Notes: generated by a model not told the origin, from the sequence alone. A stretch of 64,000 nt of DNA from Chloroflexota bacterium (GCA_037444365.1 JBBIMO010000006.1:167-64166); one strand, 5' to 3'. Shown: positions 13,811 to 43,464, numbered from the stretch's first letter. Made by a program: numbers and translations.

Positions 13811-13816
13811 ATTCCA

Positions 13817-13902: not shown

Positions 13903-13910
13903 TGTAAGCG

Positions 13911-15522: not shown

Positions 15523-15938
15523 TGACTCTGTAGCCATGACAGATGTTATCAACCCACGGCAAGCCCTTTCGGTGTGAATAAACCGTCATCTTCTCCAACC
15601 CAAGTGGTAGTCCAAATAATCGTATACATCCAAGGGGCAAACGATGAGGAAAAATGCTCGCAATGGCCTGCGGTCGGGTAAGCAGGCTCGGTAGATAGTG
15701 ACAAATTCCCGGAAACGAGTTATCATATGGCCGAGGGGCAGTGGTCTATCAAGGAAAAGTAGAGAGATATGTTGCTTCCTTGACACGACACTCTACTGAA
15801 GGAGTAGTCGCCTCAGGGGTGTGCTTTTTCATTGTAGGCATACGGTGCGAGTTCATCCCTCGTACCGGCACCGGAATCGCCAAAGGGTCTCCACACGTGG
15901 AGATTCTTTGTTTTATGACATACAGAAGGGGGTAATGA

Positions 15939-23109: not shown

Positions 23110-23583
23110 TCACTTGTTAGCATGGAGAGAGGCTGCTTGAGCTTGATGAATTACCTTGGCTGGCTCCTGAGCATCCTTCCTCAAGGGACTGGGGCCGAGC
23201 TTCCTAATCTCGGAGATGAAATCAGTTACCACCTGAGCAAACCTTTGCCCCTCGGCAGCGGACACCCACTCCAGCTTCAGCCGTTCCGGCTCGATTCCCA
23301 ACTGGGGCAAGAGTTTCTTCAGAAGCAACATCCTCCTCAACGTCTTGTAGTTCCCCTCCAAGTAGTGACAGTCCCGGGGGTGGCATCCCCCTATGAAAAC
23401 ACCATCAGCCCCCCGTTGAAAGGCTTCCAGAACATACACAGGGGCTACCGCTCCAGAACACATCAGCCTTATCATTCTCAAATTCGGTGGATATTGAAAC
23501 CGGCTTATCCCAGCAAGGTCAGCACCAGCATAGGCACACCAGTTACAACAGAAGCCAATAATCCTGGGCTCGAAACTATCCAT
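23110..23583 (-). CDS. mvhD: MvhD-like (methyl-viologen-reducing hydrogenase delta subunit family) [2Fe-2S] protein
   Basis: 'IIGFCCNWCAYAGADLAG...MIRLMCSGAV...FQRGADGVFIGGCHPRDCHY' is the MvhD/FlpD signature. Confidence 0.85.
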   Translation of the reverse strand: MDSFEPRIIGFCCNWCAYAGADLAGISRFQYPPNLRMIRLMCSGAVAPVYVLEAFQRGADGVFIGGCHPRDCHYLEGNYKTLRRMLLLKKLLPQLGIEPERLKLEWVSAAEGQRFAQVVTDFISEIRKLGPSPLRKDAQEPAKVIHQAQAASLHANK

Positions 23584-23710
23584 CTAACTCCTTCGGAGAA
23601 ACCCCAATTTCCGGGCTCTAAACGGATTCAAATCTCTAACCTGAAATAACAAAACTCTCTTATTCCTGGCTTTGCACATTTGTGCTTTGGCATCTAATGC
23701 TTGGTATCTC

Positions 23711-26700
23711 CTATCCTCCTGCTAAAGCAGCGTCAAGCATTGCCGAGACTTCGCCTCTGGTGAATCCTCGCTGCTGAACAGCGCCCGAGGGACAGGCGGC
23801 ACAACAAGTGCCACAACCCTTGCAAAGAGCTTCGTTTACGGCAGAAACTCCCTTGTCTCGATTCACAGCTATTGCCCCGTAAGGGCAAAGGACTTCACAC
23901 ACACCACAACCGCTGCATAGAGCCTCGTCGACGTAAGCGACTATTCCTTCACCAATTATGGCATCCTTGACCAGTATGGTAGTAGCACGAGAGGCAGCAG
24001 CTTTAGCCTGGGCAATGCTCTCCTCGAGAGATTTCGGCGCGTGAGCCAGCCCGCACACAAACACCCCATCCGTAGCAAAGTCAACGGGACGCAGCTTGAC
24101 GTGTGCTTCAAGGAAAAAGCCGTCTTGATTCACGGGCACCTTGTATAGCATGGCAAGCTCCCTCGCATCCGGTGAAGATGCCATTGCTACACTCAGGCCA
24201 ATGATGTCGGCGTCTATAGCTATCTTATCGCCAAGCACCTTATCATTGACCTCCACCCTGAGCAGAAGCTGACTACCTTTCCTCTCCTGTCTCACCTTAG
24301 GCTCTTCTTCCGGCTCGTAATGCAGGAAGATAATCCCTTTCCGCCTTGCTTCTTCATAATACTCCTCGTAGAATCCGTATGTCCTTATATCCCGGTAAAG
24401 GATATAGACATTCATAGCAGGTTTCATCTCTTTGAGTTTCAGGGCGTTCTTAATCGCCTCGTTGCAGCATACCCTGGAGCAGTAAGGCCGTTCCTCGTTT
24501 CGACAACCCACACACTGAATCATGACCAGATTGCCGCAGTCAACGATATCGGGATTCCTCTTGACTATCTCTTCCTCAAGTTCAAGTTGGGTGAGCACTC
24601 TGGGGTCTCTTCCGTAGAGATATTCATCTGGCTTGTGCTCTTCAGCTCCCGTGGCAATTATGGCGACGCCATGGTCTATCTTCTCTATGACTCTACCTCT
24701 ATACCTCATTATCTCTGTGGTGAAGTTGCCAACATATCCGTGGACGTCCACGATCCAGGTATCTGTATACACTCTAATTCCGGGATGTTCCTCAACTTCC
24801 TTAACAAGCCTGCTCAGGAATTTCCGGACATCCGTGCCATCCAGGCTGTAGTGTATCCTTCTGGCTATCCCACCAAGCACGTTGCTTCTTTCGATAAGAT
24901 GAACCTCGAATCCCTGCTCCGCTAATGTCAAAGCGCTGGTCATTCCTGCCACCCCTCCCCCAACAACCAACGCCGCCCGGTTGACCGGCAAAGACAGAGG
25001 CTTCAGAGGCTCATTCAGCCTGGCTTTGGCTACCGCCATTTTCACCAGGTCTTTGGCCTTCTCAGTTGCCTTGTCTGGCTCATGCATATGTACCCAGGAA
25101 CACTGGTCCCGGATATTCGCCATCTCGAAAAGATAGGGGTTCAGCCCGGCCTTCCTGATTGTTTCACGGAACAAAGGTTCGTGAGTCCTCGGGGTACAAG
25201 ACGCCACGACAACCCGATTGAGCTTGTACTCCTCAATGACCTTCGTTATCCTCTCTTGAGTATCCTGAGAACAGGTGAAGAGATTTCTTTCAGCATAAAC
25301 CACATTCGGCAAGGTTCTGGCAAATTCACTGACATCAGGGACACTTACATACCCGCCGATATTTATTCCGCAGTGGCAGACGAAGACTCCGATTCGCGGT
25401 TCTTCCCCCGCCACATCTTTTTCCGGCGGGTATTCTTTTGCCCTAGTCAGAGTGTTTCTTGCCGGGGCTAGAAGAACAGATATTTCACCCGCAGCACCGC
25501 TCGCCTGCATCACTGTCTCGGGAATGTCTTTAGGTGCCGAAAAAGCCCCACAGACGAATATTCCCGCCCTGGAGGTCTCCACCGGTGAGAAAGGCTTTGT
25601 GTGGCAAAACCCATAAGGATTAAGCTGGATTCCAACTTTCTTAGCAAGCTTAACCAATTCTGGAGAAGACTCGAAACCGACAGAAAGCACCACCATACCG
25701 AATTTCTCAGTCTTTGTTGCACCATCCTCGGTAGTGAATTTGACTAGCAGGTCGCCCGTGCTATCTGCCGCTTCAACGTTGTACACTTTCGACCTGACGA
25801 ATCTCATGCCGACCTCGTCTCTGGCTCGTTCATAGTACCTATCAAAGTCCTTGCCGTGAGTCCTGAGGTCCATGAGGAAGATAGTTGCTTCCAAGGGAAC
25901 AGTGCTGTGTTCCTTGGCGATCATTGCTTCCTTGATAGCGTAAGTGCAACAAACAGAAGAGCAGTAAGGCCTGCCGTGTTTGGTATCTCTGGAGCCAACG
26001 CACTGGAGAAAGGCTATCTTCTGGGGCGGTGTAAGATCAGAAGGCCGCAACAGGTTCCCTTGGAAAGGACCAGAGGCAGACAATATCCGCTCAAATTCGA
26101 TGCTGGTCACCACGTTACGAAATCTGCGGTATCCAAGTTCATATTGAATGGAGGGGTCGAAAAGCTCATATCCACCGGCGAATAGAATAGCACCGACCTC
26201 CAGTTCCAGTTCCCTCGGTTTGTCCTCAGCCAGAACTGCCTTTGCCTCGCAGACGTTAGAGCAGCCCTTACAATCCATCTGCCCGGTAATCTTAAGACAG
26301 TTGTTGATGTCTCTCGTGTACTTGAGAGGAACTGCCTGGGGGAAAGGCACGTAGATGGCTTTCCTCTTAGCCAGGCCTTGGTTGAATTCGTCGGGAAGCA
26401 CGATAGGGCAGACATTGATTCGAGAAATGGCCTGCTTCTTACAGGCTTCTATACATTTCCAGCAGCCAGTGCAATTGAAGGTATTGTAGATAGGCTTCTC
26501 GCAGTTGCATTCCTCTGCTTGTTCCTTTGAGCAGGTTATGCCGATGAAGATCAGTCCGTCTGTGTTGAGGACACCTGTCTCGGCAAGTTTGTCCAGAGCT
26601 CGTTCATCACATCCCCTAGATACTATCGCAAACCGCTTATCCGGCCACTTGGTCTTGACCTGAAGGGCAAACTTGGCGACGCTCTGTCGGGGATCTATCT

Positions 26701-26875
26701 CCATCTCTGACAGTTCCTCCTTGTTTGTGAAGAGACAGAGACCGACGTGACCCCATCTTCTGCGCAGACCAATCACTCCATCGTAGCCCTCGCTCAGAAT
26801 CTCCCGAGCCTTGGCTATTATTGCTTCCTTCTCCAGCATTCTTTTTGTAGCAGCTGCCAGCGTCATTTCGCTCAT
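23711..26875 (-). CDS. Large tandem HdrA-like flavo-iron-sulfur protein (1054 aa), made of three parts
   Basis: Residues about 1-130 are an unassigned domain. Residues about 130-490 are an HdrA core C-part lacking its own dinucleotide-binding start: they match HdrA from the inserted ferredoxin domain onward ('PDEFNQGLAKRKAIYVPFPQAVPL', 'FLQCVGSRD...PYCSSVCC', 'GIFVCGAFSAPKDIPETV') but have no GxGxxG. Residues about 495-1054 are a second complete HdrA-type unit with an N-domain ('IGVFVCHCGINIGGYV'), an FAD site ('LVVGGGVAGMTSAL') and a C-terminal ferredoxin domain ('CSGCGVCEVLCP', 'CKGCGTCCAACP'). Confidence 0.85.
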   Translation of the reverse strand: MSEMTLAAATKRMLEKEAIIAKAREILSEGYDGVIGLRRRWGHVGLCLFTNKEELSEMEIDPRQSVAKFALQVKTKWPDKRFAIVSRGCDERALDKLAETGVLNTDGLIFIGITCSKEQAEECNCEKPIYNTFNCTGCWKCIEACKKQAISRINVCPIVLPDEFNQGLAKRKAIYVPFPQAVPLKYTRDINNCLKITGQMDCKGCSNVCEAKAVLAEDKPRELELEVGAILFAGGYELFDPSIQYELGYRRFRNVVTSIEFERILSASGPFQGNLLRPSDLTPPQKIAFLQCVGSRDTKHGRPYCSSVCCTYAIKEAMIAKEHSTVPLEATIFLMDLRTHGKDFDRYYERARDEVGMRFVRSKVYNVEAADSTGDLLVKFTTEDGATKTEKFGMVVLSVGFESSPELVKLAKKVGIQLNPYGFCHTKPFSPVETSRAGIFVCGAFSAPKDIPETVMQASGAAGEISVLLAPARNTLTRAKEYPPEKDVAGEEPRIGVFVCHCGINIGGYVSVPDVSEFARTLPNVVYAERNLFTCSQDTQERITKVIEEYKLNRVVVASCTPRTHEPLFRETIRKAGLNPYLFEMANIRDQCSWVHMHEPDKATEKAKDLVKMAVAKARLNEPLKPLSLPVNRAALVVGGGVAGMTSALTLAEQGFEVHLIERSNVLGGIARRIHYSLDGTDVRKFLSRLVKEVEEHPGIRVYTDTWIVDVHGYVGNFTTEIMRYRGRVIEKIDHGVAIIATGAEEHKPDEYLYGRDPRVLTQLELEEEIVKRNPDIVDCGNLVMIQCVGCRNEERPYCSRVCCNEAIKNALKLKEMKPAMNVYILYRDIRTYGFYEEYYEEARRKGIIFLHYEPEEEPKVRQERKGSQLLLRVEVNDKVLGDKIAIDADIIGLSVAMASSPDARELAMLYKVPVNQDGFFLEAHVKLRPVDFATDGVFVCGLAHAPKSLEESIAQAKAAASRATTILVKDAIIGEGIVAYVDEALCSGCGVCEVLCPYGAIAVNRDKGVSAVNEALCKGCGTCCAACPSGAVQQRGFTRGEVSAMLDAALAGG

Positions 26876-26882
26876 GCGCCCG

Positions 26883-28922
26883 TCACTCCTTGCAGATTTT
26901 CACAGCGCAAACCTTCAACTCAGCGATTTTGGCCTCAGGGTCCAAATATCTACTCGTAAGCACATTGGCCGCACATTCGGCGAAGTGGAAAGGTATGAAC
27001 ACAACGCCAGGTAGGATTTCCTCTGTGACCAAAGCCCTTATTCGAATCTCCCCTCGCCGCGACTGCACTTTCACCATGTCACCTTGAGATATAGAGAGCT
27101 TTTTAGCATCCTTAGGGTTGATCTCGACATATCCGGTGGGTAGCTCCCTTTCCAGTCTCGGAATTCTGCGAGTCATCGTTCCGGTGTGGAACTGGAACAT
27201 CAATCTGCCCGTGGTGAGAATAAATGGATACTCTGCGTCAGGTAACTCAGCAGGCTCTTTGAAGTCAACAACAAGGAATTGCCCCTTGCCTCGAGTGAAA
27301 GCGTCCTTGTGAAGGAATCTGGTTCCGGGATGATCCTTGGAAGGACATGGCCAAGACACAATCTCTCCTTTATCCAAGCGCTCATAGGATATGCCGGCGT
27401 AGATTGGCGTGAGCGACACAATTTCCTCCATAATCTCCCTAGAAGATGCGTAGCTGAAGTCTGTTGCTCCCATCCTCTTGGCTAGCTCACTCACGATGAC
27501 CCAGTCAGGTTTGGAATCTCCTACCGGCTCCATAGCCTTCCTTACTCTCTGAACTCTTCTGTCCGTTGCAGTGAACGTGCCTTCTTTTTCGGCAAACGAA
27601 CAGGCTGGAAGTACCACGTGAGCAAACTCAGCAACCTCGGAAAGGAATATATCCTGCACCACCAAGAAATCAAGCGAACTAAGGGATTTCTTCACGTGAT
27701 TTATGTCGGCATCTGACAGCGCCGGGTTCTCTCCTACGATGTACATTGCTCTAACCGCGCGGTCAATAGCAGCCTCAGTCATTTCGGTTGCTCTCAGGCC
27801 GGGTGTGGGAGACAGCTTAGTTCCCCAGGCCTTTTCGAATTTATCCCTCGCTTTGCTATCAACAACTGGCTGGTAGCCCGAAAAGACGTTGGGCAGCGCG
27901 CCCATGTCGCAAGCACCCTGGACATTGTTCTGCCCGCGCAACGGATTCACTCCTGTGAATTCGCGGCCAACATTGCCTGTGAGCATTGCCAGGTTGGCAA
28001 TACACAGCACATTCTCGGTGCCCGTGGTGTGCTGAGTTATGCCCATACCATAGAGAATGCTGCCCCTTTCGGCTCTGCCGTATGCCTTGGCGGCCTTCTC
28101 CAGTAGAGCTTTGCTGACACCTGTTATCTGACAGACCTTCTCAGGTGGATATTCCTTAAGCTTTTTCTCCAGCGCCTCAAATCCTTCGGTCCGCTCTCTA
28201 ATGAAGTCCCTGTCCTCAAGGCCCTCTCTAGTAATGATGTGCATGAGTCCGTTCAAGAGAGCAGCATCGGTGCCTGGCTTATGCGGGAGGTAGATGTCAG
28301 CAAAGTCAACCAGCGGCGTACGACGAGGGTCAGCAACAATGAGTTTCGCGCCTTTCTCCTTCGCTCGCATAACCCTCAGGCTTACGAGGGGGTGCTGCTC
28401 CGTTGTGTTGCTTCCTATCACGAAGATGCAATCTGCATGTTCTATTTCCGGCACGCTATTTGTCATTGCGCCGCTGCCGAACGCTTTCGCTAGTCCGACC
28501 ACTGTCGGGGCGTGGCAAAGGCGTGCACAGTGGTCAATGTTATTCGTGCCTATGACAGTTCGGGCGAATTTCATCACCACGAAGTTTTCTTCATTCGTAC
28601 ACTTAGCGGACGACAGAATCCCTATAGAGTCTGGCCCATACTTCTCCTTGGTGACGATGAGGCGTTTCGCCACTATGTCCAGAGCCTCTTCCCAACTTAT
28701 AGGTTCAAACTTGCCGCTTTGCTTTATCAAAGGCGACTTGAGCCGATCAGGATGGTTGATGAAGTCGGCAGCGTTTCTTCCCTTTATACAGGGCTTTCCC
28801 TCACTCATTTCATCTGTCTTGCAGGGGACAACGCCGGTGACCTGGCCGTCCATAACCTGGAGATACAACTGGCAGCCACAGCCACAGAACGGGCAGACAG
28901 TCAGCACAAAGTCGCTGTTCAT
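26883..28922 (-). CDS. fdhA: Formate dehydrogenase catalytic (alpha) subunit, Cys-type, short form (bis-MGD molybdo/tungstopterin enzyme)
   Basis: It has the N-terminal [4Fe-4S] motif 'CPFCGCGCQ...CIKG' and the active-site '[11 protein letters not shown]', with Cys136-His137 where Sec-His sits in seleno-FDHs. The C-terminal MopB_CT-like barrel reads '[19 protein letters not shown]'. The start ATG overlaps the upstream stop (ATGA). Confidence 0.85.
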
Positions 28923-29902
28923 TTCCTAAGCTCCGGTCTTATCAAGGGTCTTTCCTTAACTCTCTTGATAAGCCTCCTTTTTGTCTTTTCATCTATGCCC
29001 GGAATGACTTCAAAAATGGACTCAGGGGACTGGCGCCACATTAGCTGATGAATAGTGCGCAATGGTATATCCATGCCACAGGCCTCTTCGCACATGCCAC
29101 AGTTTACACACAAATTGGCAACGCGATAAGCTCTTATCACCTGGAACAAGGGCACGGACGGAGGTATTTCGCCGGGCTTGATCCACTCTGCATCGTCTAG
29201 CTCAGATCCGTCATAGATCCACACTGGGCAAACATCGCGGCATCCAAAGCACTTGATACACCGGCTAAGTTCTGCCTGCCAGAACTTCTTTCGCGACTCT
29301 TCATCCATCAAGCTTACTCGCTGACTTAGAGTCTCTCGTCCTTTCCCCTCCTGCTGCTCAGGGAGAAGCTCTGTCAGCTTTCGCCGTTCGAGCGAAACAT
29401 TAGTCATGGCGTGGTTTTCCTTGTTCTCTTCACGGCAAGCCAAGGCACATTCGCCACACTGAACGCACTTCGCTTCATCTATTAGTATGCGGTCCACCCA
29501 TATCTCTTCTTCTCTTTCCTTAAGGTTGCTGACGTCTGACTGCGCACACAGTCCACAACCAGTGCATTTACTCACGTCGATGTATCGAGGTCTCTGCAGT
29601 ATCTTCACTTTGAAACACCCTTCCTGTCCTGAGACCTCTTCGAGTTCAGCGTTGGTTATTAGCTGAATATTGAGATGTCTGCCAGCCTCTACCAACTTGG
29701 GCGATAAGATACACATCGAACAATCGTTAGTTGGGAAGGTTTTATCTAGCTGAGCCATTACACCGCCGATTGAGGGCGACTTCTCCACCAGGTAAACGTA
29801 ATATCCGGACTCAGCAAGGTCGAGAGCTGCCTGAATCCCCCCTATGCCTCCACCGACGACAAGGACTGCTCCTACTTTGCCGTTCCCATTTTCCTTCTTC
29901 AT
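28919..29902 (-). CDS. HdrA N-terminal (FAD/dinucleotide-binding) fragment fused to a Cys-rich Fe-S domain
   Basis: '[54 protein letters not shown]...[18 protein letters not shown]' corresponds to the first about 120 residues of the HdrA thioredoxin-reductase-like core. After that come '[11 protein letters not shown]', '[12 protein letters not shown]' and '[11 protein letters not shown]'. The start is set at the ATG with a GAGGAAAGGGG RBS (M32 of the track ORF). Confidence 0.7.
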
Positions 29903-29915
29903 AGCACCCCTTTCC

Positions 29916-30383
29916 TCACAGTCTTTGCAATGCCTTGGCAGCGAGCTCCGAAGGTTTGACTTCGACCCCCCGAGACCTAGAGTCAACAATTGCACTCACC
30001 ATCTCATGACGCAGTTTCTGGGAAAACACGTCGATTTCCTTTATCTTTTCAACAAAAGGTGAGGCGACATATCCCTCCCTCACCGCCAGGCTTCTCAGGG
30101 CCTTCATGATATCGGCAAAATCAACATTCTGGGGACAATGTCCCTGACAGTTATAGCACTGGATGCAGAACCAGATTGTCTCTGAGGAAAGGACTTCCCT
30201 CCTCATACCCAGCAGTACCATACGAATGATCCGACGAGGGTTGAACTTCTGGTCGATATCAGCAACAGGGCAGCTTGCAGTGCACAGGCCACAGGCAAAA
30301 CAAAGCTTGACATTCTCTCCGCCAGGCTCATTGGCAACATCGTACTTAAACTTTGTATCCAGTTCACTCAAAGCTACAGTCAT
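29916..30383 (-). CDS. hdrC: HdrC-like 2x[4Fe-4S] protein
   Basis: '[12 protein letters not shown]...NPRRII' and '[15 protein letters not shown]' fit the HdrC/Fer4_17 pattern. Length is 155 aa. Confidence 0.75.
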
Positions 30384-30418
30384 TTTCGCCTCCTTGGTTT
30401 CCGCTCAGCAGAGTGACT

Positions 30419-31312
30419 CTATAGTAGTCCGGCAGCCCCCAATATCTCAGGCACTTTTTCCTCCCGTCCAATAAACATGATGTGCACTCCATCACAGACT
30501 TTCTCCTCCTTCATTTGCCTTATCATCCGGGCTGCTATTTCTATTCCTTTGGCAATCCCTGTTCCCTTCGGGGCCTGGGACAGTTCATCAATGATACGTT
30601 GGGGGATAGAGATACCAGGGACGTTCTCATTCATGTAGGCAGCCATCTTTGCCCCGATAACAGGCACTATGCCGCCAAGGATCTTGACCTTTCTATCTCT
30701 CTTACGGATAAACTCCACAAATCTCTTCAAGTCATCAAGTTCATAAACCGCCTGCGTCTGAATGAAGTCCACTCCCGCCTTGAGTTTCTTTTCAACCTTG
30801 ATAAGCTGCGGCTCAAGCGGATCAGCTGAAGGAGTACCTGTTGTTCCAATACAGAAGTCAATGCCTCCATCAAGTTCATTGCCCGCCATATCCTTGCCGG
30901 ACTTCATGGTGTGAACAAGATGGATGAGCTGCACCGAATCGAGGTCAAACACTTGCTTGGCTTCCTTATGATCACCAACATCAATGGAATCACCGGTAAG
31001 GCAGAGAATATTATTCACTCCCCGCGAGCACGCGAACAGAAGATCTGCTTGAATCGCCAGACGATTCCGGTCGCGGCAGGTTACCTGAAGTATCGGCTCG
31101 CCACCGTGTTCTTTGATCAAGAGGCAGACCCCCAGGGAAGGATAGCGCATGACGGAGCTTTGATTGTCAGTTACATTCAGAGCATCCACCTTATCCTTGA
31201 GAAGCTCAATATGCTCTATCGCCTTCGACACGCTGGAGCCTTTCACCGGCCCCACCTCGGCTGTTACAACGAAGCGCTTTGTCTTAAGAGTCTCCCTAAA
31301 AGGCTTTGCCAT
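30419..31312 (-). CDS. metF: Methylenetetrahydrofolate reductase, paralogue 1 (Hdr-linked)
   Basis: 297 aa with 'VVTAEVGP', 'DALNVTDNQ', 'QVTCRDRNRLAIQADLL', 'NNILCLTGD' and 'GVDFIQTQAVY'. This is the acetogen-type short MetF pattern. Confidence 0.85.
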   Translation of the reverse strand: MAKPFRETLKTKRFVVTAEVGPVKGSSVSKAIEHIELLKDKVDALNVTDNQSSVMRYPSLGVCLLIKEHGGEPILQVTCRDRNRLAIQADLLFACSRGVNNILCLTGDSIDVGDHKEAKQVFDLDSVQLIHLVHTMKSGKDMAGNELDGGIDFCIGTTGTPSADPLEPQLIKVEKKLKAGVDFIQTQAVYELDDLKRFVEFIRKRDRKVKILGGIVPVIGAKMAAYMNENVPGISIPQRIIDELSQAPKGTGIAKGIEIAARMIRQMKEEKVCDGVHIMFIGREEKVPEILGAAGLL

Positions 31313-31323
31313 CCTTCACCCCC

Positions 31324-31983
31324 TTAAGCTTTTCCCGCCTGGATCTTCCCGGGCCTTTTCACAGCCCGATAATTCTTCGGCGCGTAGTAATTCCGCATCA
31401 AATCAAGCCTCCCTTGCTTTTCCAGCCTGCGATAAATCAGAACCCACCCACAATCCTTATCCGGATCTATTTCGCACTTTCCTCCCCTCTTCGTACCGCC
31501 ACAAGGCCCATTAAGAAGCCCCTTGGCACAGCGAACTATGGGGCAGACACCCCCCGTTCGATCCAGAAAACAATCGCCGCAACCACCACACATTTCTATC
31601 CAAAGCCCTTCTCCTTGTGGCATCCCGATAAAGACAGTGTTGACTCCCGGAAACACCGGCTTGTCCTCAAACATCTCAGCCATAGTTTGCACTCCCGACC
31701 CACAGGCTAAAGAGAGAACCGCATCAGCTTCCGCAACCTTATCCTTAATCTCTGCTACCATCTCCCTTTCGCATTGTCTCTCCACAGTAGCCTCAATGGC
31801 GACAATTCCATTCCCTTTTGCACTTCTAGCTAACCTCAGTTGTGAGGCAAGTATCGCCACCTCTTTCTCTCCACCAGCCCAACAAACAGTGACGCAGGTA
31901 CCACAACCCGCCACAAGCACCTTCTTGTAGGGGGCAACTAGTTCCTTGATCTCTTCCATAGGCTTTCGTTCGGCGATTATCAT
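31324..31983 (-). CDS. metV: MetV (MTHFR C-terminal-like Cys-rich subunit), paralogue 1
   Basis: 'VAGCGTCVTVC', 'CGGCGDCFLDRTGGVCPIVRCAKGLLNGPCGG' and 'CEIDPDKDCGW' match the MetV pattern. It is directly upstream of metF. Confidence 0.8.
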   Translation of the reverse strand: MIIAERKPMEEIKELVAPYKKVLVAGCGTCVTVCWAGGEKEVAILASQLRLARSAKGNGIVAIEATVERQCEREMVAEIKDKVAEADAVLSLACGSGVQTMAEMFEDKPVFPGVNTVFIGMPQGEGLWIEMCGGCGDCFLDRTGGVCPIVRCAKGLLNGPCGGTKRGGKCEIDPDKDCGWVLIYRRLEKQGRLDLMRNYYAPKNYRAVKRPGKIQAGKA

Positions 31984-31984
31984 G

Positions 31985-34021
31985 TTACCTCCCAGGCTCT
32001 TTTGCCGTCTTGATCATCTCATTTACTGCTCCAACAAACTTGTGGGGCGCATTGGGGCTGAGGTTGAACATCGCAACACGTCTGCCATCCACCCTAATCT
32101 CTTTCAACAGCATGTCGCAGTATTTCACCCTCTCTTTGGCTCTGGTGTTTCCAGTGATGTGATGGCAGGCGCCCTCTTCACACCCCATCACCAGCACTGC
32201 TGCTGCACCCTTTTCGAAAGCCTTCAGGATATGAAACACATCCACCTGGCCAGCACAGGGCACCCGGATTATTCGCAGATTCTCCGGGTAATGAAGCCTT
32301 AGTCTTCCCGCTAGATCAGCAGCAGGATAAGCAGAACGCTCACAACAAAACGCTACATGGCACCCATTCAACGCCTTTCCTACCGCCTCAAGCTGAGTCA
32401 CGATCTCCTCATCTCTATGACCTTGAAATCTTATCGCCTTAGCCGGGCATATTGCAGCGCAAATGCCACAAGCATAGCAAGCGAGGTCTGAAATCCCGGC
32501 CACCTCCTTGCTATTATCTGTTCGAGTTAGGTGGATAGCGCCATGCGGACAAACACGAATGCAAGTAAGGCATGCCACGCACTTCTGAGGGTCAGCTCTC
32601 ACTTTCTCAACATCCACCGGAATTCTTCCCGCGGACAAGAGCTCGTGCACAGACATGACCACACTGGAAATATCTGCCAACACACTCCCTATGCCTGAGT
32701 CACCCCGACATCCACCAACAAAAAGTATTCCCTTTCTCTCCGAGCCAACGGGATACAGGTGGACGTTCTCATCCTGTAAGAAGCCTCTGGAGTCTCTCCT
32801 CACGTTCAGCAAGAGATTCAAGGTTCCAGTTCCCTCTCCAGGGAGATAAAGCTCCTCCGCAACCAGAACGTCACAGGCCAAGCTTATATCTTCTCCGAGA
32901 AAAGTATCTCTAGCCTCGATTCCTACCCGCCCGTTCTCCACAGCAATCCTCGGCGATGCATCGGTCTTCACAAACACCACCCCGCAGTTTCTCGCCTCCC
33001 GGTAAAGTCTCTCCATTCCTTGGCCATCTACTTTAGCGTTCTTGTAGAAGACGTAAATCTCGCTGCCCCACTTCTTCTTGGCTGCCAAAGCGTTGTTAAG
33101 GGTAGCCACCGCGGCAAAGCGAGAGTTCTCATCGGAAAAGTCAAACATCAAACATATGGTTCTAGGCTCTTTCTCCAGATTAGGATTAACAAGCATACTG
33201 CAGAACTGCTCTTGCGATACAATGTTCGGGCCGGCGATCGCCCCGCCTCCAGTTCGCAACTCCGGTCCGAAATCCGACGCAAGCCTAGTTTGACATCCTA
33301 TGGCGAGGACTATCGCCCCATACTTGCGGATGATTTCCTCTACCCCTTTTCGTATCACTACTCTGAAATCACCTACCTTCCCCTCTACTGCCGTCATCTG
33401 AGCAGACGTCAAGATCTCAATGTTTTCATCTATCTCTGCCGCACTTATCATTGAATCTGTGTCAAAACAGCAGAAGCGTTCCGATTCCTCGGCCCCAATT
33501 CCCAGAAGCGCCTCTTCCTGCAATAGGGTTGTGCGCAGCCCAATTCGAGATAGCTGGAGAGCCACATTGATTGCCGAGAATCCGCCACCGACCACGAGAA
33601 CCTCTTTGTTCACGGGCAATTCCTTCTTCTCTATTGGCTGAAGTGACCGAGCCCTGCGTACCGCCATCTCCATAAGCTCCACAGCCTTCTCAGTAACATC
33701 CCCTTCATGAGCCCAAGAGCACTGCTCCCTGATATTTGCCATGGCCAGTAGGTGCTCATTTAGCCCAGCCTCTTTCAATACTCCTCGGAAAATATGCTCC
33801 TGAAATTCAGGAGAGCAAGCAGCAACGACAACTCCCTCTATGTGCTCCTCTTTGATACGGGAAAGCATCTTCTCCCTTCCTTCCTCAAGACACAGGTTGG
33901 AACTCAAGTCTACAGAGGCGACACCGGGGAGTGCCGCTGCCTTTCCAGCAGCGATATCAAAGTCGATATTCTTTATGGCTCCACCGCAATTACAAAGAAA
34001 AACGCCTATTCTTCTATCCAT
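31985..34021 (-). CDS. HdrA-like protein with C-terminally fused MvhD domain (678 aa)
   Basis: It has an N-domain ('IGVFLCNCGGAI...ANIREQCSWAH'), a dinucleotide site ('LVVGGGFSAINVAL') and a ferredoxin domain ('CVACLTCIRVCP', 'CYACGICAAICP'). These are followed by MvhD: 'VAFCCERSAYPAADLAG...IIRVPCAGQV...FEKGAAAVLVMGCEEGACHH'. Confidence 0.85.
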   Translation of the reverse strand: MDRRIGVFLCNCGGAIKNIDFDIAAGKAAALPGVASVDLSSNLCLEEGREKMLSRIKEEHIEGVVVAACSPEFQEHIFRGVLKEAGLNEHLLAMANIREQCSWAHEGDVTEKAVELMEMAVRRARSLQPIEKKELPVNKEVLVVGGGFSAINVALQLSRIGLRTTLLQEEALLGIGAEESERFCCFDTDSMISAAEIDENIEILTSAQMTAVEGKVGDFRVVIRKGVEEIIRKYGAIVLAIGCQTRLASDFGPELRTGGGAIAGPNIVSQEQFCSMLVNPNLEKEPRTICLMFDFSDENSRFAAVATLNNALAAKKKWGSEIYVFYKNAKVDGQGMERLYREARNCGVVFVKTDASPRIAVENGRVGIEARDTFLGEDISLACDVLVAEELYLPGEGTGTLNLLLNVRRDSRGFLQDENVHLYPVGSERKGILFVGGCRGDSGIGSVLADISSVVMSVHELLSAGRIPVDVEKVRADPQKCVACLTCIRVCPHGAIHLTRTDNSKEVAGISDLACYACGICAAICPAKAIRFQGHRDEEIVTQLEAVGKALNGCHVAFCCERSAYPAADLAGRLRLHYPENLRIIRVPCAGQVDVFHILKAFEKGAAAVLVMGCEEGACHHITGNTRAKERVKYCDMLLKEIRVDGRRVAMFNLSPNAPHKFVGAVNEMIKTAKEPGR

Positions 34022-35299
34022 TCAATGGCTTCCTTGCTTGCCTCGCCTTTGGCTTGCGGATTGGCCTAGCACTTGCATTGCCTTCGAAGCTGCAGCTATC
34101 CCGTGAGAGATGGAACCGGGTATATCCTTGGGCCCTTGGCAAGTTCCGGCGACGAACACACCATCAACATTGGTTTCATTTGAACCGATGGAATCCCTTA
34201 CATCAAAGAATCCTTCGTCAGTCAAATTTATCCCCAGAATCCTGGCCAAATCCCAGGAGTTCCTGCCAGGAGAAATACCCACAGAAAGGACCACAAGGTC
34301 AAAAGTGTCCCGACAAACCTTTCCCTCAGAGACATCTTCAAACTTCACCTCAAGCTCGCCAGGTAAGGTCTGCAGAACCTCCACTGGTACTCCCCTCACA
34401 AATCGTATACTTTGCTTGTATTTTTCATAGAATTGAGCAAAGCCCTTCCCGGCAGTCTGCAGGTCGATGTAGAAGATAGTCACCCTGGTATCAGGACTCT
34501 GATATTTGATAAGCCCGGCCAGTTTCATAGCATACTTGCAACACACCTGCGAGCAGTAACCGTGACCCTCGTCTCTCGAGCCAACACACTGAACAAAAGC
34601 AATGTTCCGGGGCTCTTTACCGTCTGCGCCAAGCCTGAGACGGCCTTCGCGAGTGAAAACCTGCTCCAGATCAAGACCAGTCAGGACATTGGAGTACCTA
34701 CCGTAGCCGAGAGAACCCTTCATTCTGGCGTCAAAAACATCAAAGCCGGTGGCAACAATGATGGCACCGACGTTCAACTCCTGCTCTTTTGGCTTGAGAG
34801 CAAACTCGATAGCTTGGGTAGGGCAGTTCGCCCGGCAGACATCGCATTTCTCCCCTTTGGAGCGCAGACAGAGTCCTTCATCGAGAACGTAGGAAAAAGG
34901 TGTTGCTTCAGCAGAAGGCGGATGAATCGCCTTTGGGTTAACGGGGCAGACCTCGGTGCAAACGCCGCAAGCTATGCATCTCTGTTCATCAACATGGTGG
35001 GGCTGCTTGACTATTCCGACTTGAAAGTTGCCCAGCTCGCCCGTAAGTCTTGCTATCGTGGAGTAGGTCAGGACCCTAATGCGAGGATGAGCTACCGCTT
35101 CCTTGATCTTGTCGAGAACTACACAGGCAGAACACCTGGAACAGACATCCGTTGCCTTACAACAAAAAGAGGCACTATGCCCACCAACCACCGCCTCCTT
35201 CTCAACCAGATAGACACTTATACCCGCATTAGCTAGCTCTAACGCTGACGCTACCCCTGATACACCCGACCCAAAAACCAGAACGCTTTTGTTTTCCAA
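34022..35299 (-). CDS. HdrA-core-like flavoprotein with inserted ferredoxin domain, but no N-domain or C-terminal ferredoxin domain (425 aa; TTG start)
   Basis: 'VLVFGSGVSGVASALELANAG', the inserted Fe-S motifs 'CIACGVCTEVCP' and 'CDVCRANCP', plus 'FVQCVGSRD..GYCSQVCC' and 'GVFVAGTCQGPKDIPGSI'. The only in-frame start is TTG, with an AAGGAA RBS. Its stop abuts the next gene's start. Confidence 0.8.
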   Translation of the reverse strand: MENKSVLVFGSGVSGVASALELANAGISVYLVEKEAVVGGHSASFCCKATDVCSRCSACVVLDKIKEAVAHPRIRVLTYSTIARLTGELGNFQVGIVKQPHHVDEQRCIACGVCTEVCPVNPKAIHPPSAEATPFSYVLDEGLCLRSKGEKCDVCRANCPTQAIEFALKPKEQELNVGAIIVATGFDVFDARMKGSLGYGRYSNVLTGLDLEQVFTREGRLRLGADGKEPRNIAFVQCVGSRDEGHGYCSQVCCKYAMKLAGLIKYQSPDTRVTIFYIDLQTAGKGFAQFYEKYKQSIRFVRGVPVEVLQTLPGELEVKFEDVSEGKVCRDTFDLVVLSVGISPGRNSWDLARILGINLTDEGFFDVRDSIGSNETNVDGVFVAGTCQGPKDIPGSISHGIAAASKAMQVLGQSASQRRGKQGSH

Positions 35300-35343: not shown

Positions 35344-35742
35344 CTACTTTTTTAGCAACCCCTCAACCCTGTTCACTAGTTCCTTGGCGTCAACTGGCTT
35401 CTGAAGATAATCATCTGCCTCCATCATCATTCCTTCCCGCATGGAAAGATGCATCTTCTCCCTGTCTTCAGGATAAACAGTCAGCATCAACACCGGGATG
35501 TTGGAGAAGAAATAGTACTTCTCGTCGGTCTTGAGCTCATGGCAGACATCAAATCCGTGTTTGCCGGGCATTATCACATCCAGTATGATTAAGTCAGGCC
35601 TCTCATCCACTACTTTGCGCAAACCTTCGAACCCATCATATGCAGATATGACCTCATAGGACTTGGGCTCCAGGATTCTTCTAACCACTGTGTGTACATC
35701 ACGGTCATCGTCAATGAGCAAAATTCTGGTTTGCTTTAGCAT
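35344..35742 (-). CDS. Receiver-only response regulator (CheY-like)
   Basis: 'RILLIDDD', the phospho-acceptor 'LIILDVIMPG' and a conserved 'K' in 'YLQKPV'. At 132 aa it has no output domain. Confidence 0.85.
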   Translation of the reverse strand: MLKQTRILLIDDDRDVHTVVRRILEPKSYEVISAYDGFEGLRKVVDERPDLIILDVIMPGKHGFDVCHELKTDEKYYFFSNIPVLMLTVYPEDREKMHLSMREGMMMEADDYLQKPVDAKELVNRVEGLLKK

Positions 35743-36136
35743 CCTTTCCTCCTTTAGACAAAAGCTTCTCTACACGCTGGAGCAACACAAAGGGCTCTAT
35801 GGGCTTCTCTATATAGTCATCAACAGACAGCTTACGGCCTAGTTCCAGTTCGTAGCGCCTCTGGCTAGCCTCCTCCCTGACTGAACTGATGACAAGAACC
35901 GGAATGTCAGGATATCCTCTCTTCTGGCAACCCTCCAATTCCCTAACCACAGCAAAGCCATCCATCCCTGGCATTAGAAGATCCAAAAGCATTATGTCTG
36001 GCTTCTCTTCTTTCAACTTCTTCAACGCCTCAAATCCGTCACAAGCCTCAATTACCTGATAGGAGCGTGACTTCAATACACTGGCGATTGCCAGCCGCAT
36101 GTCAGGATCATCATCCACTATCAAGACCTTCGGCAT
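35711..36136 (-). CDS. Receiver-only response regulator (CheY-like)
   Basis: 'KVLIVDDDPD', 'IMLLDLLMPGMDG' and 'YIEKPI'. At 141 aa it has no output domain. It overlaps the next response regulator by 32 nt. Confidence 0.85.
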   Translation of the reverse strand: MPKVLIVDDDPDMRLAIASVLKSRSYQVIEACDGFEALKKLKEEKPDIMLLDLLMPGMDGFAVVRELEGCQKRGYPDIPVLVISSVREEASQRRYELELGRKLSVDDYIEKPIEPFVLLQRVEKLLSKGGKDAKANQNFAH

Positions 36137-36141
36137 ACGCT

Positions 36142-37299
36142 TTACTCTGCTTGTTTCGGAGCCTTGGGCAAAACAAAGGTGAACGTGGTTCCCTTGCCTG
36201 TCTCAGGACAGGGACTTGTTGCCCAAATCTTGCCACCGTGACCCTCGACTATCTTCTTGCTTATGGAAAGCCCCAAGCCAGCTCCTCTCTTTTCCATGTC
36301 CAGACCCTTATAGAAACCATCGAATACTTTGGCCAAGTCCTCAGTGGGAATTCCAACACCTGTGTCAATCACATCAACACGCACATGATCCTTCTCGTTC
36401 CTCGCTCTAACCGTTATCCCGCCCGTCGGAGTGAATTTTATGGCATTGGATAGCAGGTTCGTCATGACTTGCTTGAGCCTGCCGGCGTTCCCTACAATCG
36501 TGGGAAGCTGTCTGGGCGCTGCGACATCCATCTGCAATCCCTTTTCCACAGCTAACGGACGCATCATCTCAGTGCAGTCTTCTATCACTTTCAGCAAGGA
36601 GACTTCCTCAGTCCTGAATTCCCCAAAATCAACGCGCGAGAAGTCAATCATGTTGCTTATCAAATTGAGAAGGTCAGAAAGCCTCTTGCTGCTCCTTTGC
36701 ACGATGTTCTTCTGCTCATCACTGAGCTCTCCGACAAAGCCATCAAGCAACAGCCGATTGTAGCTCTCTGCGGCAGCCAAAGGGGCCTTCAAGTCATGAA
36801 AGATCACCGACAGAATGCGCTCCATCGTTTGTTTAGTATGCTGCAGTCTCGAAGCAACCACTTTCACAAGGTTGTTCGCTACTTTGTAACCCATTTGAGG
36901 GTTTTCATCCAGCAGGGCTCTGAGTTTCTCTCCGTCCAGTGCGATAATCTCAGTCCTCTCCAGACACCGACCCGAGGAAGTAAGAATATGAGGTTCCATT
37001 AGTGCAGACCAGCAGAAACTGCTCCCTTCCGATAATACATCGATTGTGGCCCTTTCAGCTGCGCTACGGCTTATGGTAAGCTCCGTCTCCAGAGCTACCT
37101 TGCCCGATTTGAGAGTCTGAACATAGTTACAGTGCGCACCCTCGCAGAACATGACCGCCCCTGCTTCGTAGAACTGCTCCTGGCAAAGCGGGAGCAGTTT
37201 GTCCAGTTCCTGGTCGGTCAAGCCCTGGAACATCTCTGAAGACCTCAGGGTTTCCTTGATTGAGTCGAGTTCTGTTGTTGCTTCCATTGGCCGCCGCAT
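36142..37299 (-). CDS. Cytoplasmic sensor histidine kinase with N-terminal cyclic-nucleotide-binding-like domain
   Basis: It has a cNMP-like N-domain ('FQGLTDQELDKLLPLCQEQFYEAGAVMFCEG'), the H-box 'FHDLKAPL', the N-box 'NLLSNAIKFT' and G-boxes 'DTGVGI' and 'GAGLGLSISKKIVEGHGGKIW'. There is no TM segment. I moved the start to the internal ATG (37299 or 37287) to avoid overlapping the divergent metF. Confidence 0.85.
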   Translation of the reverse strand: MRRPMEATTELDSIKETLRSSEMFQGLTDQELDKLLPLCQEQFYEAGAVMFCEGAHCNYVQTLKSGKVALETELTISRSAAERATIDVLSEGSSFCWSALMEPHILTSSGRCLERTEIIALDGEKLRALLDENPQMGYKVANNLVKVVASRLQHTKQTMERILSVIFHDLKAPLAAAESYNRLLLDGFVGELSDEQKNIVQRSSKRLSDLLNLISNMIDFSRVDFGEFRTEEVSLLKVIEDCTEMMRPLAVEKGLQMDVAAPRQLPTIVGNAGRLKQVMTNLLSNAIKFTPTGGITVRARNEKDHVRVDVIDTGVGIPTEDLAKVFDGFYKGLDMEKRGAGLGLSISKKIVEGHGGKIWATSPCPETGKGTTFTFVLPKAPKQAE

Positions 37300-37415
37300 A
37301 TTATAACCACTTCGGCAGATGATTGCAAAAAACCCTAACGCGGAGTAACACCCGAACATTGCCCTAAATGGGACATTCTGGCATACTGTGCTAAAATCAT
37401 GTCGGGAGTCCACAA

Positions 37416-38339
37416 ATGAAGACAAAGAGCAATCTAGCCAGGATACTAGATATCGGGCAATTTGCCGTCACCGCCGAAATCAGCTCTCCGCAAAATACAC
37501 AATTCGATACGATCAGGAAGAACATGAGCCTCATCAAGGGCTACGTCGATGCCTTCAATGTCCCTGACGGACAGGCAGCAGTGGTAGCAATGGCGAGCTG
37601 GGCAGTCTGTCTTGTGGGAATACAGGAAGGGCTCGATGCCATAGTCCACATGACCTGCCGCGACCAGAATCGAATCGCCCTCCAAATGGACATCTTGGCA
37701 GTGTCCGCTTTTGGCGTTAACAATATACTTTGTCTCTCCGGGGACCCTATTTACTTTGGAAATCATCCCAAGGCGAAGCCCGTCTTCGACATCGATTCTC
37801 TCCAGCTAATCAAGATGGTCAAGCAACTAAGAGATGAAAGGAAATTCGATAATGGAGAGGTACTAGTGGGAACAGAGCCCAGGCTGTTCATCGGGACAAC
37901 TATGAACCCTTCTGTTCAACCGCTAGAGGCCGCTGTAAACCGCCTTGAGGAAAAGGTTACCGCTGGAGCAGATTTTCTCCAGACCCAGCCTATATATAAC
38001 ATCGATGGATTCAGGAAATGGATGGAAGTAGTTCGAGAAAAGGGATTACATAAAGCGGTAAGAATTCTGGCTGGCATTGCTCCTGTAACATCCTTAGCAG
38101 CAGCAAGATATATGAAGACCAAAATCCCCAACATGGATATTCCTGATGCAATTATTGAACGCCTTAAGAAAGCCCGTAACAAAGAAGAGGCGGCAGAGGA
38201 AGGGATAAGTATCGCCGTCGAAACAGTCAATCAACTAAAGCAGATTGAAGGAGTAGCCGGTGTACATATCATGACCCTACAGCGAGAGGAGCTTATCCCC
38301 AAGATCTGCAACAGAGCCAGCCTCTACCCTCGCCCCTGA
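37416..38339 (+). CDS. metF: Methylenetetrahydrofolate reductase, paralogue 2 (stand-alone, only plus-strand gene in the cluster)
   Basis: 307 aa, by eye about 60% identical to paralogue 3 (same 'MKTKSNL' N-terminus, 'HMTCRDQNRIALQMDIL', 'NNILCLSGD', 'GADFLQTQPIYN'). No adjacent metV. Confidence 0.85.
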   Translation: MKTKSNLARILDIGQFAVTAEISSPQNTQFDTIRKNMSLIKGYVDAFNVPDGQAAVVAMASWAVCLVGIQEGLDAIVHMTCRDQNRIALQMDILAVSAFGVNNILCLSGDPIYFGNHPKAKPVFDIDSLQLIKMVKQLRDERKFDNGEVLVGTEPRLFIGTTMNPSVQPLEAAVNRLEEKVTAGADFLQTQPIYNIDGFRKWMEVVREKGLHKAVRILAGIAPVTSLAAARYMKTKIPNMDIPDAIIERLKKARNKEEAAEEGISIAVETVNQLKQIEGVAGVHIMTLQREELIPKICNRASLYPRP

Positions 38340-43374: not shown

Positions 43375-43464
43375 GCAGTTTCCTCCTTGCTTTCGGTAAC
43401 TTTCTGACACTCGCATTTAACCCGAAACTTTGGAATGGTTACCATTCTTCCCACAAAACCTAGC

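Follow-up and report, generated by a model that had tools for sequence, protein, structure and literature searches.

An apparent formate dehydrogenase cassette inside an HdrA core of an HdrB-less MetFV operon from a Chloroflexota bacterium

Introduction

A stretch of 64,000 nucleotides from a Chloroflexota bacterium (GCA_037444365.1, JBBIMO010000006.1:167-64166; hereafter the window, with positions counted from its first letter) carries nine genes, g1 to g9, all in one direction on the minus strand at 23110-35299. They encode HdrA-like and MvhD proteins in duplicate, the methylene-tetrahydrofolate (methylene-THF) reductase proteins MetV and MetF, an HdrC-like protein and the formate dehydrogenase (FDH) subunit FdhA. 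The locus raises the question of how these parts belong together: are the duplicated pieces equivalent, why is one HdrA-like protein interrupted by an FDH gene, and what accepts the electrons if HdrB is missing? An initial annotation, drawn from the sequence alone, had seen two parallel Hdr-like modules related by gene fission and fusion. Here we show that the operon is an HdrB-less member of the Hdr-type (Moorella-type) MetFV methylene-THF reductase systems, in which one HdrA-like protein is apparently interrupted by an FDH cassette.

It has been previously reported that HdrA is heterodimeric in tandem or fused archaeal forms and in the Moorella MetFV-associated enzyme (Chadwick et al., PMC9012536), and that K409 and E356 are bifurcation-signature residues (PMC12054007). 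The Moorella HdrA, a protein of 162.8 kDa, oxidises NADH; the physiological donor and the second acceptor of the Moorella and Sporomusa enzymes are not known (PMC9430772).

Results

HdrA pieces that bear the insert are referred to below as cores and the insert-less ones as units; set 1 consists of g1 and g2, and set 2 of g6, g8 and g9 (Table 1). Domains were called by Pfam scans of 49 open reading frames (ORFs) in the window. BLASTP comparisons revealed the repeats: residues 108-414 of g1 matched residues 135-472 of g8 (36%, 3e-52), the N-termini of g1 and g6 matched each other (35%), residues 4-546 of g2 matched residues 494-1049 of g8 (28%, 2e-54), and the MvhD part of g2 matched g9 (34%). 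Together with the Pfam content, these repeats bear out the earlier claim that three blocks, an insert-bearing core, an insert-less unit and MvhD, are present twice with different fusion boundaries.

All four flavoprotein segments aligned to HdrA of Methanothermococcus thermolithotrophicus (5ODC) with E-values of 1e-95 to 1e-180, g1 covering its residues 145-565 (E 1.5e-95). Residue by residue, both cores (g1; the g6 N-part with g8 residues 134-482) possess Cys194/Cys197 and the 8-Cys inserted ferredoxin and lack the N-terminal Cys domain as well as the C-terminal ferredoxin. The units (g2 residues 1-548; g8 residues 485-1054) show the complementary pattern, with the N-terminal Cys domain and also the C-terminal ferredoxin present and Cys194/Cys197 and the inserted ferredoxin both absent. 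The Cys194/197 region of the g6 N-part is near-identical to the N-terminus of P0011 (P-numbers denote relative proteins and L-numbers the loci of relatives). No single chain holds all four HdrA domains, and all four HdrA-like proteins score far below the NCBIfam cutoffs for HdrA and HdrA2. Because of this complementary distribution and the sub-cutoff scores, we read the pieces as heterodimer halves as in PMC9012536; in the 2025 classification of HdrA the pattern corresponds to types Ia and II (PMC12054007). Taken together, these alignments show each set to encode a predicted asymmetric HdrA pseudo-dimer of core and unit, accompanied by one MvhD, in which the core would supply the flavin with K409/E356, Cys194/197, the [4Fe-4S] cluster leading to HdrC and the inserted ferredoxin domain. 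The building-block idea was correct, and its heterodimer logic had already been published (PMC9012536).

The two sets differ in their cofactor ligands. A thioredoxin reductase (TrxR)-like flavin adenine dinucleotide (FAD) domain with K409, E356 and the Cys386/399/403/404 cluster is retained by core 1, core 2 and unit 2 and not by unit 1. In unit 1 the TrxR-cluster cysteines are replaced (D/-/A/A), E356 is changed to C and K409 to N; its N-domain cysteines 11, 13, 46, 71 and 103 and the eight cysteines of the C-terminal ferredoxin are retained. Set 1 would thus carry a single competent flavin, that of core 1, and is probably the MetFV-proximal module, with the gene order hdrA-mvhD-metV-metF as in Moorella. 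The modules had been called parallel; as a statement of functional equivalence this fails, unit 1 being without the [4Fe-4S] cysteines and K409/E356.

Central to the interruption of core 2 is g7, which by its sequence is a bona fide FDH alpha subunit. It scores 910 bits against TIGR01591 (cutoff 666), contains Fe4S4, molybdopterin and dinucleotide-binding domains and the active-site motif ARLCHAPTV (Cys-His), and has as its closest solved relatives 9T1S_L, 7QV7_S and 7BKB_D, which are the Fdh of Hdr complexes and FdhF of HDCR. The NuoG-fused FdhA elsewhere in the window is 56% identical to it. Selenocysteine read-through joining g6, g7 and g8 was ruled out: the genes lie in three different frames and the g6/g7 overlap is ATGA.

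Residues 1-133 of g8 gave no Pfam match, and we found this domain to be conserved, with invariant cysteines at 89, 115, 123 and 125. Its profile matches the FdhB chains 7BKB_E and 9T1S_M of methanogen Fdh-Hdr complexes (E ~0.002). An AlphaFold2 model with a predicted local distance difference test score of ~90 over residues 1-125 found 7BKB_E as its best Foldseek match (E 2.4e-5, root-mean-square deviation 2.0 A over 106 columns); next in rank were 8RVU_E, HCAR, Fsr and FrhB, all of them FrhB-family proteins. The FAD/F420-binding C-terminal domain of FdhB/FrhB gave no Pfam FrhB_FdhB_C match in g8; the N-domain stops at about residue 130 and is directly continuous with the inserted ferredoxin of HdrA. 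We take the domain for a remnant of FdhB/FrhB and not for a member of the family. A degenerate MvhD, guessed from the Cys pattern, was ruled out by the profile and fold searches, which lead to FdhB/FrhB.

The FdhB-like N-domain is rare: it has 69 representatives among 1.84 billion proteins, and a scan of species-representative genomes located it in 84 places, from which 80 loci were kept. All 80 are from metagenome-assembled genomes (MAGs), of Dehalococcoidia, Desulfobacterales, Syntrophales, Anaerolineae, Actinomycetota and Aminicenantes. In class A loci a fusion of the N-domain with an HdrC-like dicluster domain makes up a free beta subunit of ~280 aa, and the gene order is HdrC-HdrB-HdrA-MvhD-beta-FdhA, so that beta and FdhA stand behind MvhD and outside HdrA. 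In class B, to which the window belongs along with 28 species representatives, fdhA lies between the two parts of a split and permuted beta subunit: the dicluster part comes last in the gene that starts with the core N-part (g6), and the N-domain opens the gene that goes on with the inserted ferredoxin and the remainder of the core (g8). The break in core 2 is, on this comparison, best described as an FDH cassette (the Fe-S domains of g6, then g7, then the g8 N-domain) inserted where the inserted-ferredoxin domain begins. It had previously been taken for simple gene fission; instead, the insertion lies at a site that carries other redox modules in sister operons.

In addition, P0131, P0149 and P0155 show direct fusions of the FdhB-like N-domain with MvhD and a dicluster ferredoxin, in one order or the other, which suggests that this N-domain may be a general adaptor between FdhA and MvhD/HdrA. 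In class B loci L021-L033, L037 and L059, from Desulfobacterales and others, each of FdhA, MvhD and the core N-part is broken into a pair of neighbouring ORFs in one frame (136+544 aa and 75+76 aa, for example), as would be expected from TGA selenocysteine codons; the window versions of these three have cysteine throughout.

Relatives of g8, 59-86% identical, occur in four forms. Besides the FdhA-split form (L007, L010, L013) there are unsplit tandem HdrA proteins of 1008-1017 aa with no cassette (L004, where plain tandems are followed by MvhGA), a form of 1490 aa whose inserted ferredoxin domain contains an NfnB/GltD-like NAD(P)H module, reminiscent of HdrL and type III (L002/L003), and a form with NuoE, NuoF and a NuoG-like N-terminus interrupting the core (L009). 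The operons share a common frame: core 1, unit 1, MvhD, MetV, MetF, HdrC-like, then set 2 with its cassette, MvhD and sometimes MvhG-MvhA. This nine-gene order, with HdrC right after MetF and no HdrB, is kept among relatives at 50-89% protein identity across the four cassette types. MvhD follows set 2 in all relatives examined, and MvhG-MvhA stands behind that MvhD in L007, L009b, L014 and L017. Thus the insertion site in core 2 appears to be a swappable port that takes FdhA, NfnB, NuoEF or nothing. With the cassette left aside, g8 shares 84% identity with the NfnB-type protein and 75% with the FdhA-type protein of L007; because g8 is nearer the NfnB type (61% bootstrap, below), cassettes appear to have been exchanged among close relatives.

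Fusion boundaries are similarly fluid. Among the best 120 clusters unit 1 and MvhD are fused in 83 and unfused in 37, the state flipping repeatedly; fused relatives have 640-678 aa with FlpD, and in L010, the closest FdhA-type relative, the two genes are unfused with an ATGA overlap. An assembly indel as the origin of the g2 fusion, conceivable from the separate genes of L010 and L002 with one base different at the junction, was ruled out by the 83 fused clusters. Set 2 is encoded as one, two or three polypeptides across relatives. In this sense fusion and fission do relate the modules, as first proposed. The relatives are nearly all MAGs of Dehalococcoidia/Chloroflexota, and g3 is 85% identical to its L002 orthologue. 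L007 (GCA_040757495.1), with a window-like operon at 50-80% protein identity, bears the label Thermodesulfobacteriota, which could reflect lateral transfer or a binning error. L004 has, at 6198-15849, two consecutive 1008-aa tandem HdrA genes with MvhD after each (one MvhD of 252 aa with a long C-terminal extension) and then MvhG-MvhA; together with set 1 this makes three HdrA pseudo-dimers in one operon.

Whether the two sets are recent duplicates was examined with a neighbour-joining distance tree of the shared TrxR C-part (~230 columns, 200 bootstrap replicates). Core 1 and unit 1 each form a clade of their own with 100% bootstrap. Set-2 cores from all MetFV operons form one clade, also with 100%, regardless of cassette, and core 2 of the window clusters with the NfnB type at 61%. 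Core 1 and core 2 were exclusive sisters in 0/200 bootstraps, which rules out a recent internal duplication, a possibility that the initial annotation had proposed to examine by phylogeny. The two sets are, as judged from this tree and their residues, old paralogous lineages that are predicted to be functionally non-equivalent.

The absence of HdrB was examined at several levels. No CCG domain (PF02754) was found in the 49 ORFs scanned across the 64-kb window, and in a six-frame motif scan of the window the sole CCG tripeptide in a real ORF was a chance occurrence in a NuoF; a hidden CCG/HdrB domain is therefore ruled out within the window. The claim that the window encodes no such protein stands, and it extends to the orthologous MetFV-type operons examined (window, L002-L007, L010, L013), where no CCG gene lies within 10 kb. 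The L009 contig carries both kinds of cluster, and its CCG gene sits in the separate, divergent one.

What fills the gap is suggested by synteny. HdrC-HdrB comes before the class B block in L009b, L014, L015, L019, L020, L029, L033, L035 and L036; the same slot ahead of the FdhA-split HdrA is occupied by MetV-MetF-HdrC in the window clade. The HdrC-like g5 has both CxxCxxCxxxCP motifs and scores 94 bits against TIGR03290 (HdrC; cutoff 160). It covers positions 30-133 of the 198 in profile NF041779, leaving the C-terminal third of the HdrC profile unmatched, and its 155 aa compare with 190-199 aa in stop-to-stop ORFs for HdrC next to HdrB; a short g5 is consistent with loss of the HdrB partner. 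Because MetV-MetF-HdrC sits where HdrC-HdrB sits elsewhere, the arrangement supports a role for MetF, reached via MetV and g5, in place of HdrB and the heterodisulfide. MetF had been presumed to be the acceptor on the absence of HdrB; the synteny slot fits that presumption, which stays an inference from gene order. In two Dehalococcoidales loci, L019 (13537-14208) and L029 (13417-14208), the order is HdrC, HdrB, g6-like, FdhA, g8-like, MvhD, MetV, which is Moorella-like with HdrB and an FdhA cassette; MetF was not detected behind MetV in L019, and L029 stops at the contig edge.

All nine reading frames of the operon were confirmed at the stated coordinates, and their Pfam content agrees with the domains listed in the initial annotation. 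It had overlooked three features: the additional Fe-S domains that close g6, the FdhB-like domain of 133 aa that opens g8, and the kinase and regulators upstream. Intergenic spacing is -4 to 35 nt throughout, except for 127 nt before g9, with 35 nt between metF and g5; this spacing suggests that g1-g9 are co-transcribed. The true start of g6 is the ATG at 29902 (327 aa), in agreement with the public record; an alternative 358-aa ORF from GTG overlaps g5. Both g9 and the C-terminus of g2 score above the PF02662 cutoff, have the conserved Cys pattern and can be aligned with relatives, and metV and metF cluster co-directionally with hdrA and mvhD, as they do in L002, L004, L007, L010 and L013. 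An Rfam scan gave no matches.

Table 1. Coordinates of the operon genes, their segments and neighbouring features in the window
Feature	Coordinates	Strand	Basis or remarks
g1, HdrA core 1, 425 aa	34022-35299	-	TrxR-like FAD domain with inserted 2x[4Fe-4S] ferredoxin (Pfam FAD fold and Fer4)
g2 whole, 678 aa	31985-34021	-	Rossmann fold, C-terminal Fer4, then FlpD/MvhD
g2 residues 1-548, HdrA unit 1	32378-34021	-	degenerate FAD domain
g2 residues 556-678, MvhD 1, fused to unit 1	31988-32356	-	FlpD PF02662 at residues 556-674, 1.3e-41, 142 bits
g3, MetV	31324-31983	-	DUF5981 PF12225, 1e-33
g4, MetF (methylene-THF reductase)	30419-31312	-	MTHFR PF02219, 3e-37
g5, short HdrC-like 2x[4Fe-4S] protein, 155 aa	29916-30383	-	Fer4_8 and Fer4_17
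g6 whole, 327 aa	28919-29902	-	ATG start at 29902
g6 residues 1-108, N-part of HdrA core 2	29579-29902	-	FAD-binding beta-alpha-beta fold with Cys194/197; 35% to g1 N-terminus
g6 residues 109-327, cassette Fe-S domains	28922-29578	-	ferredoxin-like part and HdrC-like dicluster part; Fer4_8, Fer4_17 and related matches
g7, FdhA, cytoplasmic Cys-type FDH catalytic subunit	26883-28922	-	TIGR01591 and three Pfam domains
g8 whole, 1054 aa	23711-26875	-	FAD-fold C-part, then second HdrA-like unit
g8 residues 1-133, FdhB/FrhB-family N-terminal domain	26477-26875	-	profile and fold search; four invariant Cys
g8 residues 134-482, inserted ferredoxin domain and C-part of HdrA core 2	25430-26476	-	aligned to 5ODC residues 246-472
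g8 residues 485-1054, HdrA unit 2 (N-domain, insert-less FAD domain, C-terminal ferredoxin)	23714-25423	-	aligned to 5ODC residues 2-241 and 469-638
g9, free MvhD 2	23110-23583	-	FlpD, 5e-56, 188 bits
Histidine kinase binding cyclic nucleoside monophosphate (cNMP), and two receiver-only response regulators	35344-37425	-	Pfam; upstream of operon, co-directional, 44 nt from g1
Third MetF (MTHFR) paralogue	37416-38339	+	between histidine kinase and NuoG-fused FdhA; no adjacent MetV
NuoG-like::FdhA fusion, NuoF, NuoE	38371-43416	-	fusion 900 aa, 56% to g7, Cys active site
Second MetV-MetF pair, DUF3786 protein, HycI protease, NiFe hydrogenase	43465-48731	-	MetV and MetF 40% to g3 and g4
Archaeal-type CO dehydrogenase/acetyl-CoA synthase (CODH/ACS), with CooC-like ATPase and second NuoE-NuoF pair	48794-59636	-	CdhA with epsilon subunit CdhB, CdhC, CdhD-like proteins, pterin-binding methyltransferase

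The operon lies within a Wood-Ljungdahl 'super-cluster' that holds an archaeal-type CODH/ACS, two NuoEF pairs, the NuoG-fused FdhA, an extra MetVF pair, a lone MetF and a NiFe hydrogenase. The histidine kinase and regulators are the same genes in the same place in L002, L003 and L010 and are found in part in L004 and L007; the response regulators consist of a receiver domain only, with no output domain. The lone third MetF shares 55% identity with the second MetF and 40% with g4; L002 carries this gene at the corresponding position. The NuoG-like::FdhA fusion is possibly of Bfu type and may be an NAD(H)/ferredoxin-linked FDH. The hydrogenase is group-1/NiFeSe-like (NF033181, 690 bits), and its small subunit begins at the first cluster motif with no twin-arginine translocation signal, so the enzyme appears cytoplasmic; together with the second MetVF it may form an H2-linked alternative methylene-THF reductase. 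As a group-1/NiFeSe-like enzyme and not an Mvh/Vhu, it was ruled out as the Mvh partner of MvhD.

Discussion

How might electrons run through this assembly? We put about an even chance on a reading in which the FDH cassette is the mid-potential port of a flavin-based bifurcating enzyme that links formate/CO2, methylene-THF and ferredoxin, the direction of flow being inferred from the arrangement of the parts. FdhA would oxidise formate, and the electrons would reach the core 2 flavin via the Fe-S clusters of the cassette and then the inserted ferredoxin domain. From there the high-potential electron would travel via the core [4Fe-4S] cluster to g5, MetV and the flavin of MetF, reducing methylene-THF, and the low-potential electron would be delivered to ferredoxin or a partner enzyme by way of MvhD or the unit clusters. 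The scheme would be reversible: in an oxidative Wood-Ljungdahl pathway, methyl-THF and reduced ferredoxin would yield formate. The cassette is read as a donor port because the NAD(P)H and NuoEF modules found at the same site fit thermodynamically only as mid-potential partners. Size lends further support, since the NADH-oxidising Moorella HdrA is matched by the NfnB-insert form, of which P0011 has 163.3 kDa.

Several points weigh against a donor port. [quoted passage not shown] The constant MvhD after set 2, with MvhG-MvhA beyond it in L007, L009b, L014 and L017, suggests that H2 enters there and that FdhA has another role. The Moorella and Sporomusa enzymes are themselves without proven bifurcation or a second acceptor (PMC9430772). 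In the window, a scan for promoters and terminators gave nothing above shuffled expectation, and HdrB could be encoded outside the 64 kb, given that L009 has both cluster kinds on one contig.

The opposite wiring, that of the methanogen Hdr-Fwd super-assemblies, is to us rather unlikely. A mid-potential donor (H2 by way of a hydrogenase, or another partner) would enter at MvhD, the core 2 flavin would bifurcate, and the inserted ferredoxin would feed FdhA to reduce CO2 to formate, with methylene-THF reduced on the high-potential branch via g5 and MetVF; run oxidatively, the enzyme would confurcate electrons from formate and methyl-THF onto the MvhD port. Wired in this manner, it would tie the first reduction of the methyl branch to the fourth, as in a Wolfe cycle. 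The cassette does sit exactly at the inserted ferredoxin domain, which feeds the polyferredoxin and the tungstopterin CO2 reductase FwdBC (PMC13518236), MvhD is behind set 2 at every locus with MvhG-MvhA next in four, and one CO2 reduced per methylene-THF reduced suits the stoichiometry of the pathway. Furthermore, class A loci, where formate is the presumed donor, have beta and FdhA behind MvhD, so the integrated layout may mean a different role. What speaks against such wiring is that NfnB/GltD-like or NuoEF modules occupy the same site in sister proteins 75-84% identical; because low-potential electrons spent on NAD(P)+ make little sense, these equivalent cassettes argue for a mid-potential port. 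The window also holds no Mvh hydrogenase, its NiFe enzyme being group-1-like, and has a separate NuoEF-linked FdhA for the CO2/formate step. Equally doubtful is the energetic corollary that, with FDH at the low-potential exit of HdrA, exergonic methylene-THF reduction would drive CO2 to formate or, in reverse, formate oxidation would pull the difficult methyl-THF oxidation. If true, bacteria would possess a folate-based analogue of the way in which methanogens couple the last step of the Wolfe cycle to the first, and the cassette site would let lineages re-plug the coupling to NAD(P)H or NuoEF modules. Of donor port and low-potential exit, the donor port is the one we favour.

Two further possibilities concern which proteins form one enzyme. 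It is improbable, in our view, that two enzymes are merely co-transcribed, set 1 and MetVF being a minimal Moorella-like reductase without HdrBC, and g5, set 2, FdhA and MvhD 2 a stand-alone formate-dependent, Hdr-type bifurcating enzyme whose acceptor would not be MetF, possibly working via an HdrB/HdrD encoded elsewhere. The core-unit-mvhD-metV-metF order mirrors hdrA-mvhD-metV-metF in Moorella (PMC5736913), many genomes have the block of HdrC, g6-like, FdhA, g8-like and MvhD on its own beside HdrB or an HdrD-like CCG protein, L009 has both cluster kinds on its contig, and a 35-nt gap separates metF from g5. Such independence fits poorly with a nine-gene order without HdrB that is kept at 50-89% protein identity through four cassette types, with the fully supported clade of set-2 cores from MetFV operons, and with a g5 shorter than HdrB-adjacent HdrC proteins. 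Least probable of all seems a canonical HdrABC-type complex, in which an HdrB from outside the window would join g5 and a disulfide-type substrate would be reduced alongside or instead of methylene-THF. The genome is seen here over 64 kb, FdhA-split HdrA relatives usually adjoin CCG proteins, and the Moorella and Sporomusa systems include HdrB, which interacts with MetF in pull-downs (PMC9430772). Against this stand the lack of CCG genes within 10 kb of the MetFV-type operons examined, the assignment of the L009 CCG gene to a separate divergent cluster and the shortening of g5 relative to HdrC profiles.

Compared with HdrCBA-MvhD-MetVF of Moorella thermoacetica and Sporomusa ovata, the window has the same clustering of metV and metF with hdrA and mvhD in the order hdrA-mvhD-metV-metF, an HdrC-like dicluster protein, and methylene-THF as the presumed high-potential acceptor; their HdrA consists of two fused HdrA copies that complement each other in Cys197 and the N-domain (PMC9012536). 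The differences are that the window and its orthologous operons are without HdrB, that g5 is shorter, that a second, free MvhD is present, and that the window has two HdrA pseudo-dimers against their one, one of the two being split into core and unit::MvhD. In addition, the FDH cassette takes the place of what is probably a GltD-like NADH module in theirs. With the methanogen Fdh-Hdr(-Fmd) and Vhu/Mvh-Hdr-Fwd complexes (7BKB, 9T1S, 5ODC, 9SW6) the window shares the HdrA fold and cofactor ligands, MvhD, a close FdhA (9T1S_L, 7BKB_D), the FdhB fold of the g8 N-domain, and the principle of wiring a Mo/W-pterin CO2/formate enzyme into a bifurcating HdrA. Those complexes, however, are homodimers of complete HdrA with HdrBC and a heterodisulfide, whereas the window has asymmetric pairs with MetFV presumably replacing HdrB; and FdhB in them is an entire F420/FAD protein docked via MvhD, whereas the window keeps only the FdhB N-domain and dicluster domain, covalently spliced into HdrA at the inserted ferredoxin.

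The tandem, fused and NfnB/GltD-inserted HdrA proteins of anaerobic methanotrophic (ANME) and other archaea (HdrA3-6 and 9-13, Chadwick et al. 2022; types Ia, II and III, PMC12054007) show the same division of labour between a Cys197 half and an N-domain half. The MvhD fusion resembles type Ia, two TrxR domains per chain resemble type II, and the ~500-aa NfnB-like insertion of type III lies in the inserted ferredoxin domain, the site of the cassette in the window (PMC12054007); these proteins differ in being archaeal and mostly adjoining HdrBC. The HdrBCA-MvhD-FdhBA clusters of marine Chloroflexi and Desulfobacula toluolica (Sewell et al. 2017) have the same component families, and their order matches class A. 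The same families recur in the split hdrA / fdhB-fdhA loci of Desulfobacterium autotrophicum, where HdrL is an HdrA/GltD fusion (Strittmatter et al. 2009). Desulfobacterales share the FdhA-split layout of g6-g7-g8, with selenocysteine. Unlike the window, the clusters of these two studies have CCG proteins and no MetFV, and their pieces were annotated as separate fdhB, fdhA and hdrA genes, not as one interrupted HdrA core.

Tandem and heterodimeric HdrA, MvhD fusions, NfnB insertions, Hdr-type MetFV reductases, HdrBCA-MvhD-FdhBA and split hdrA beside fdhBA in Desulfobacterium are already published. In the searchable literature we found no report of fdhA with a permuted FdhB remnant interrupting one HdrA core at the inserted-ferredoxin boundary, of FdhA as a separate-polypeptide insert that cuts an HdrA core into two genes, of the inserted-ferredoxin site as a swappable port (FdhA, NfnB, NuoEF, nothing), or of a conserved Dehalococcoidia operon with two HdrA pairs and MetFV and without HdrB.

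The operon family offers a natural series at one site (FDH, NAD(P)H module, NuoEF, nothing), and with it natural experiments on the energetic coupling of a Wood-Ljungdahl step. HdrB appears dispensable across the series, which narrows the hypotheses: MetFV could replace HdrB as acceptor, and the inserted-ferredoxin site would be a general plug-in port. The 'fdhB' and 'hdrA' annotations around fdhA in Desulfobacterales and Chloroflexota become pieces of one interrupted HdrA, and the series points to concrete proteins for expression and assay. Uncultured Dehalococcoidia are abundant in anoxic sediments, and these findings bear on their carbon and hydrogen/formate cycling.

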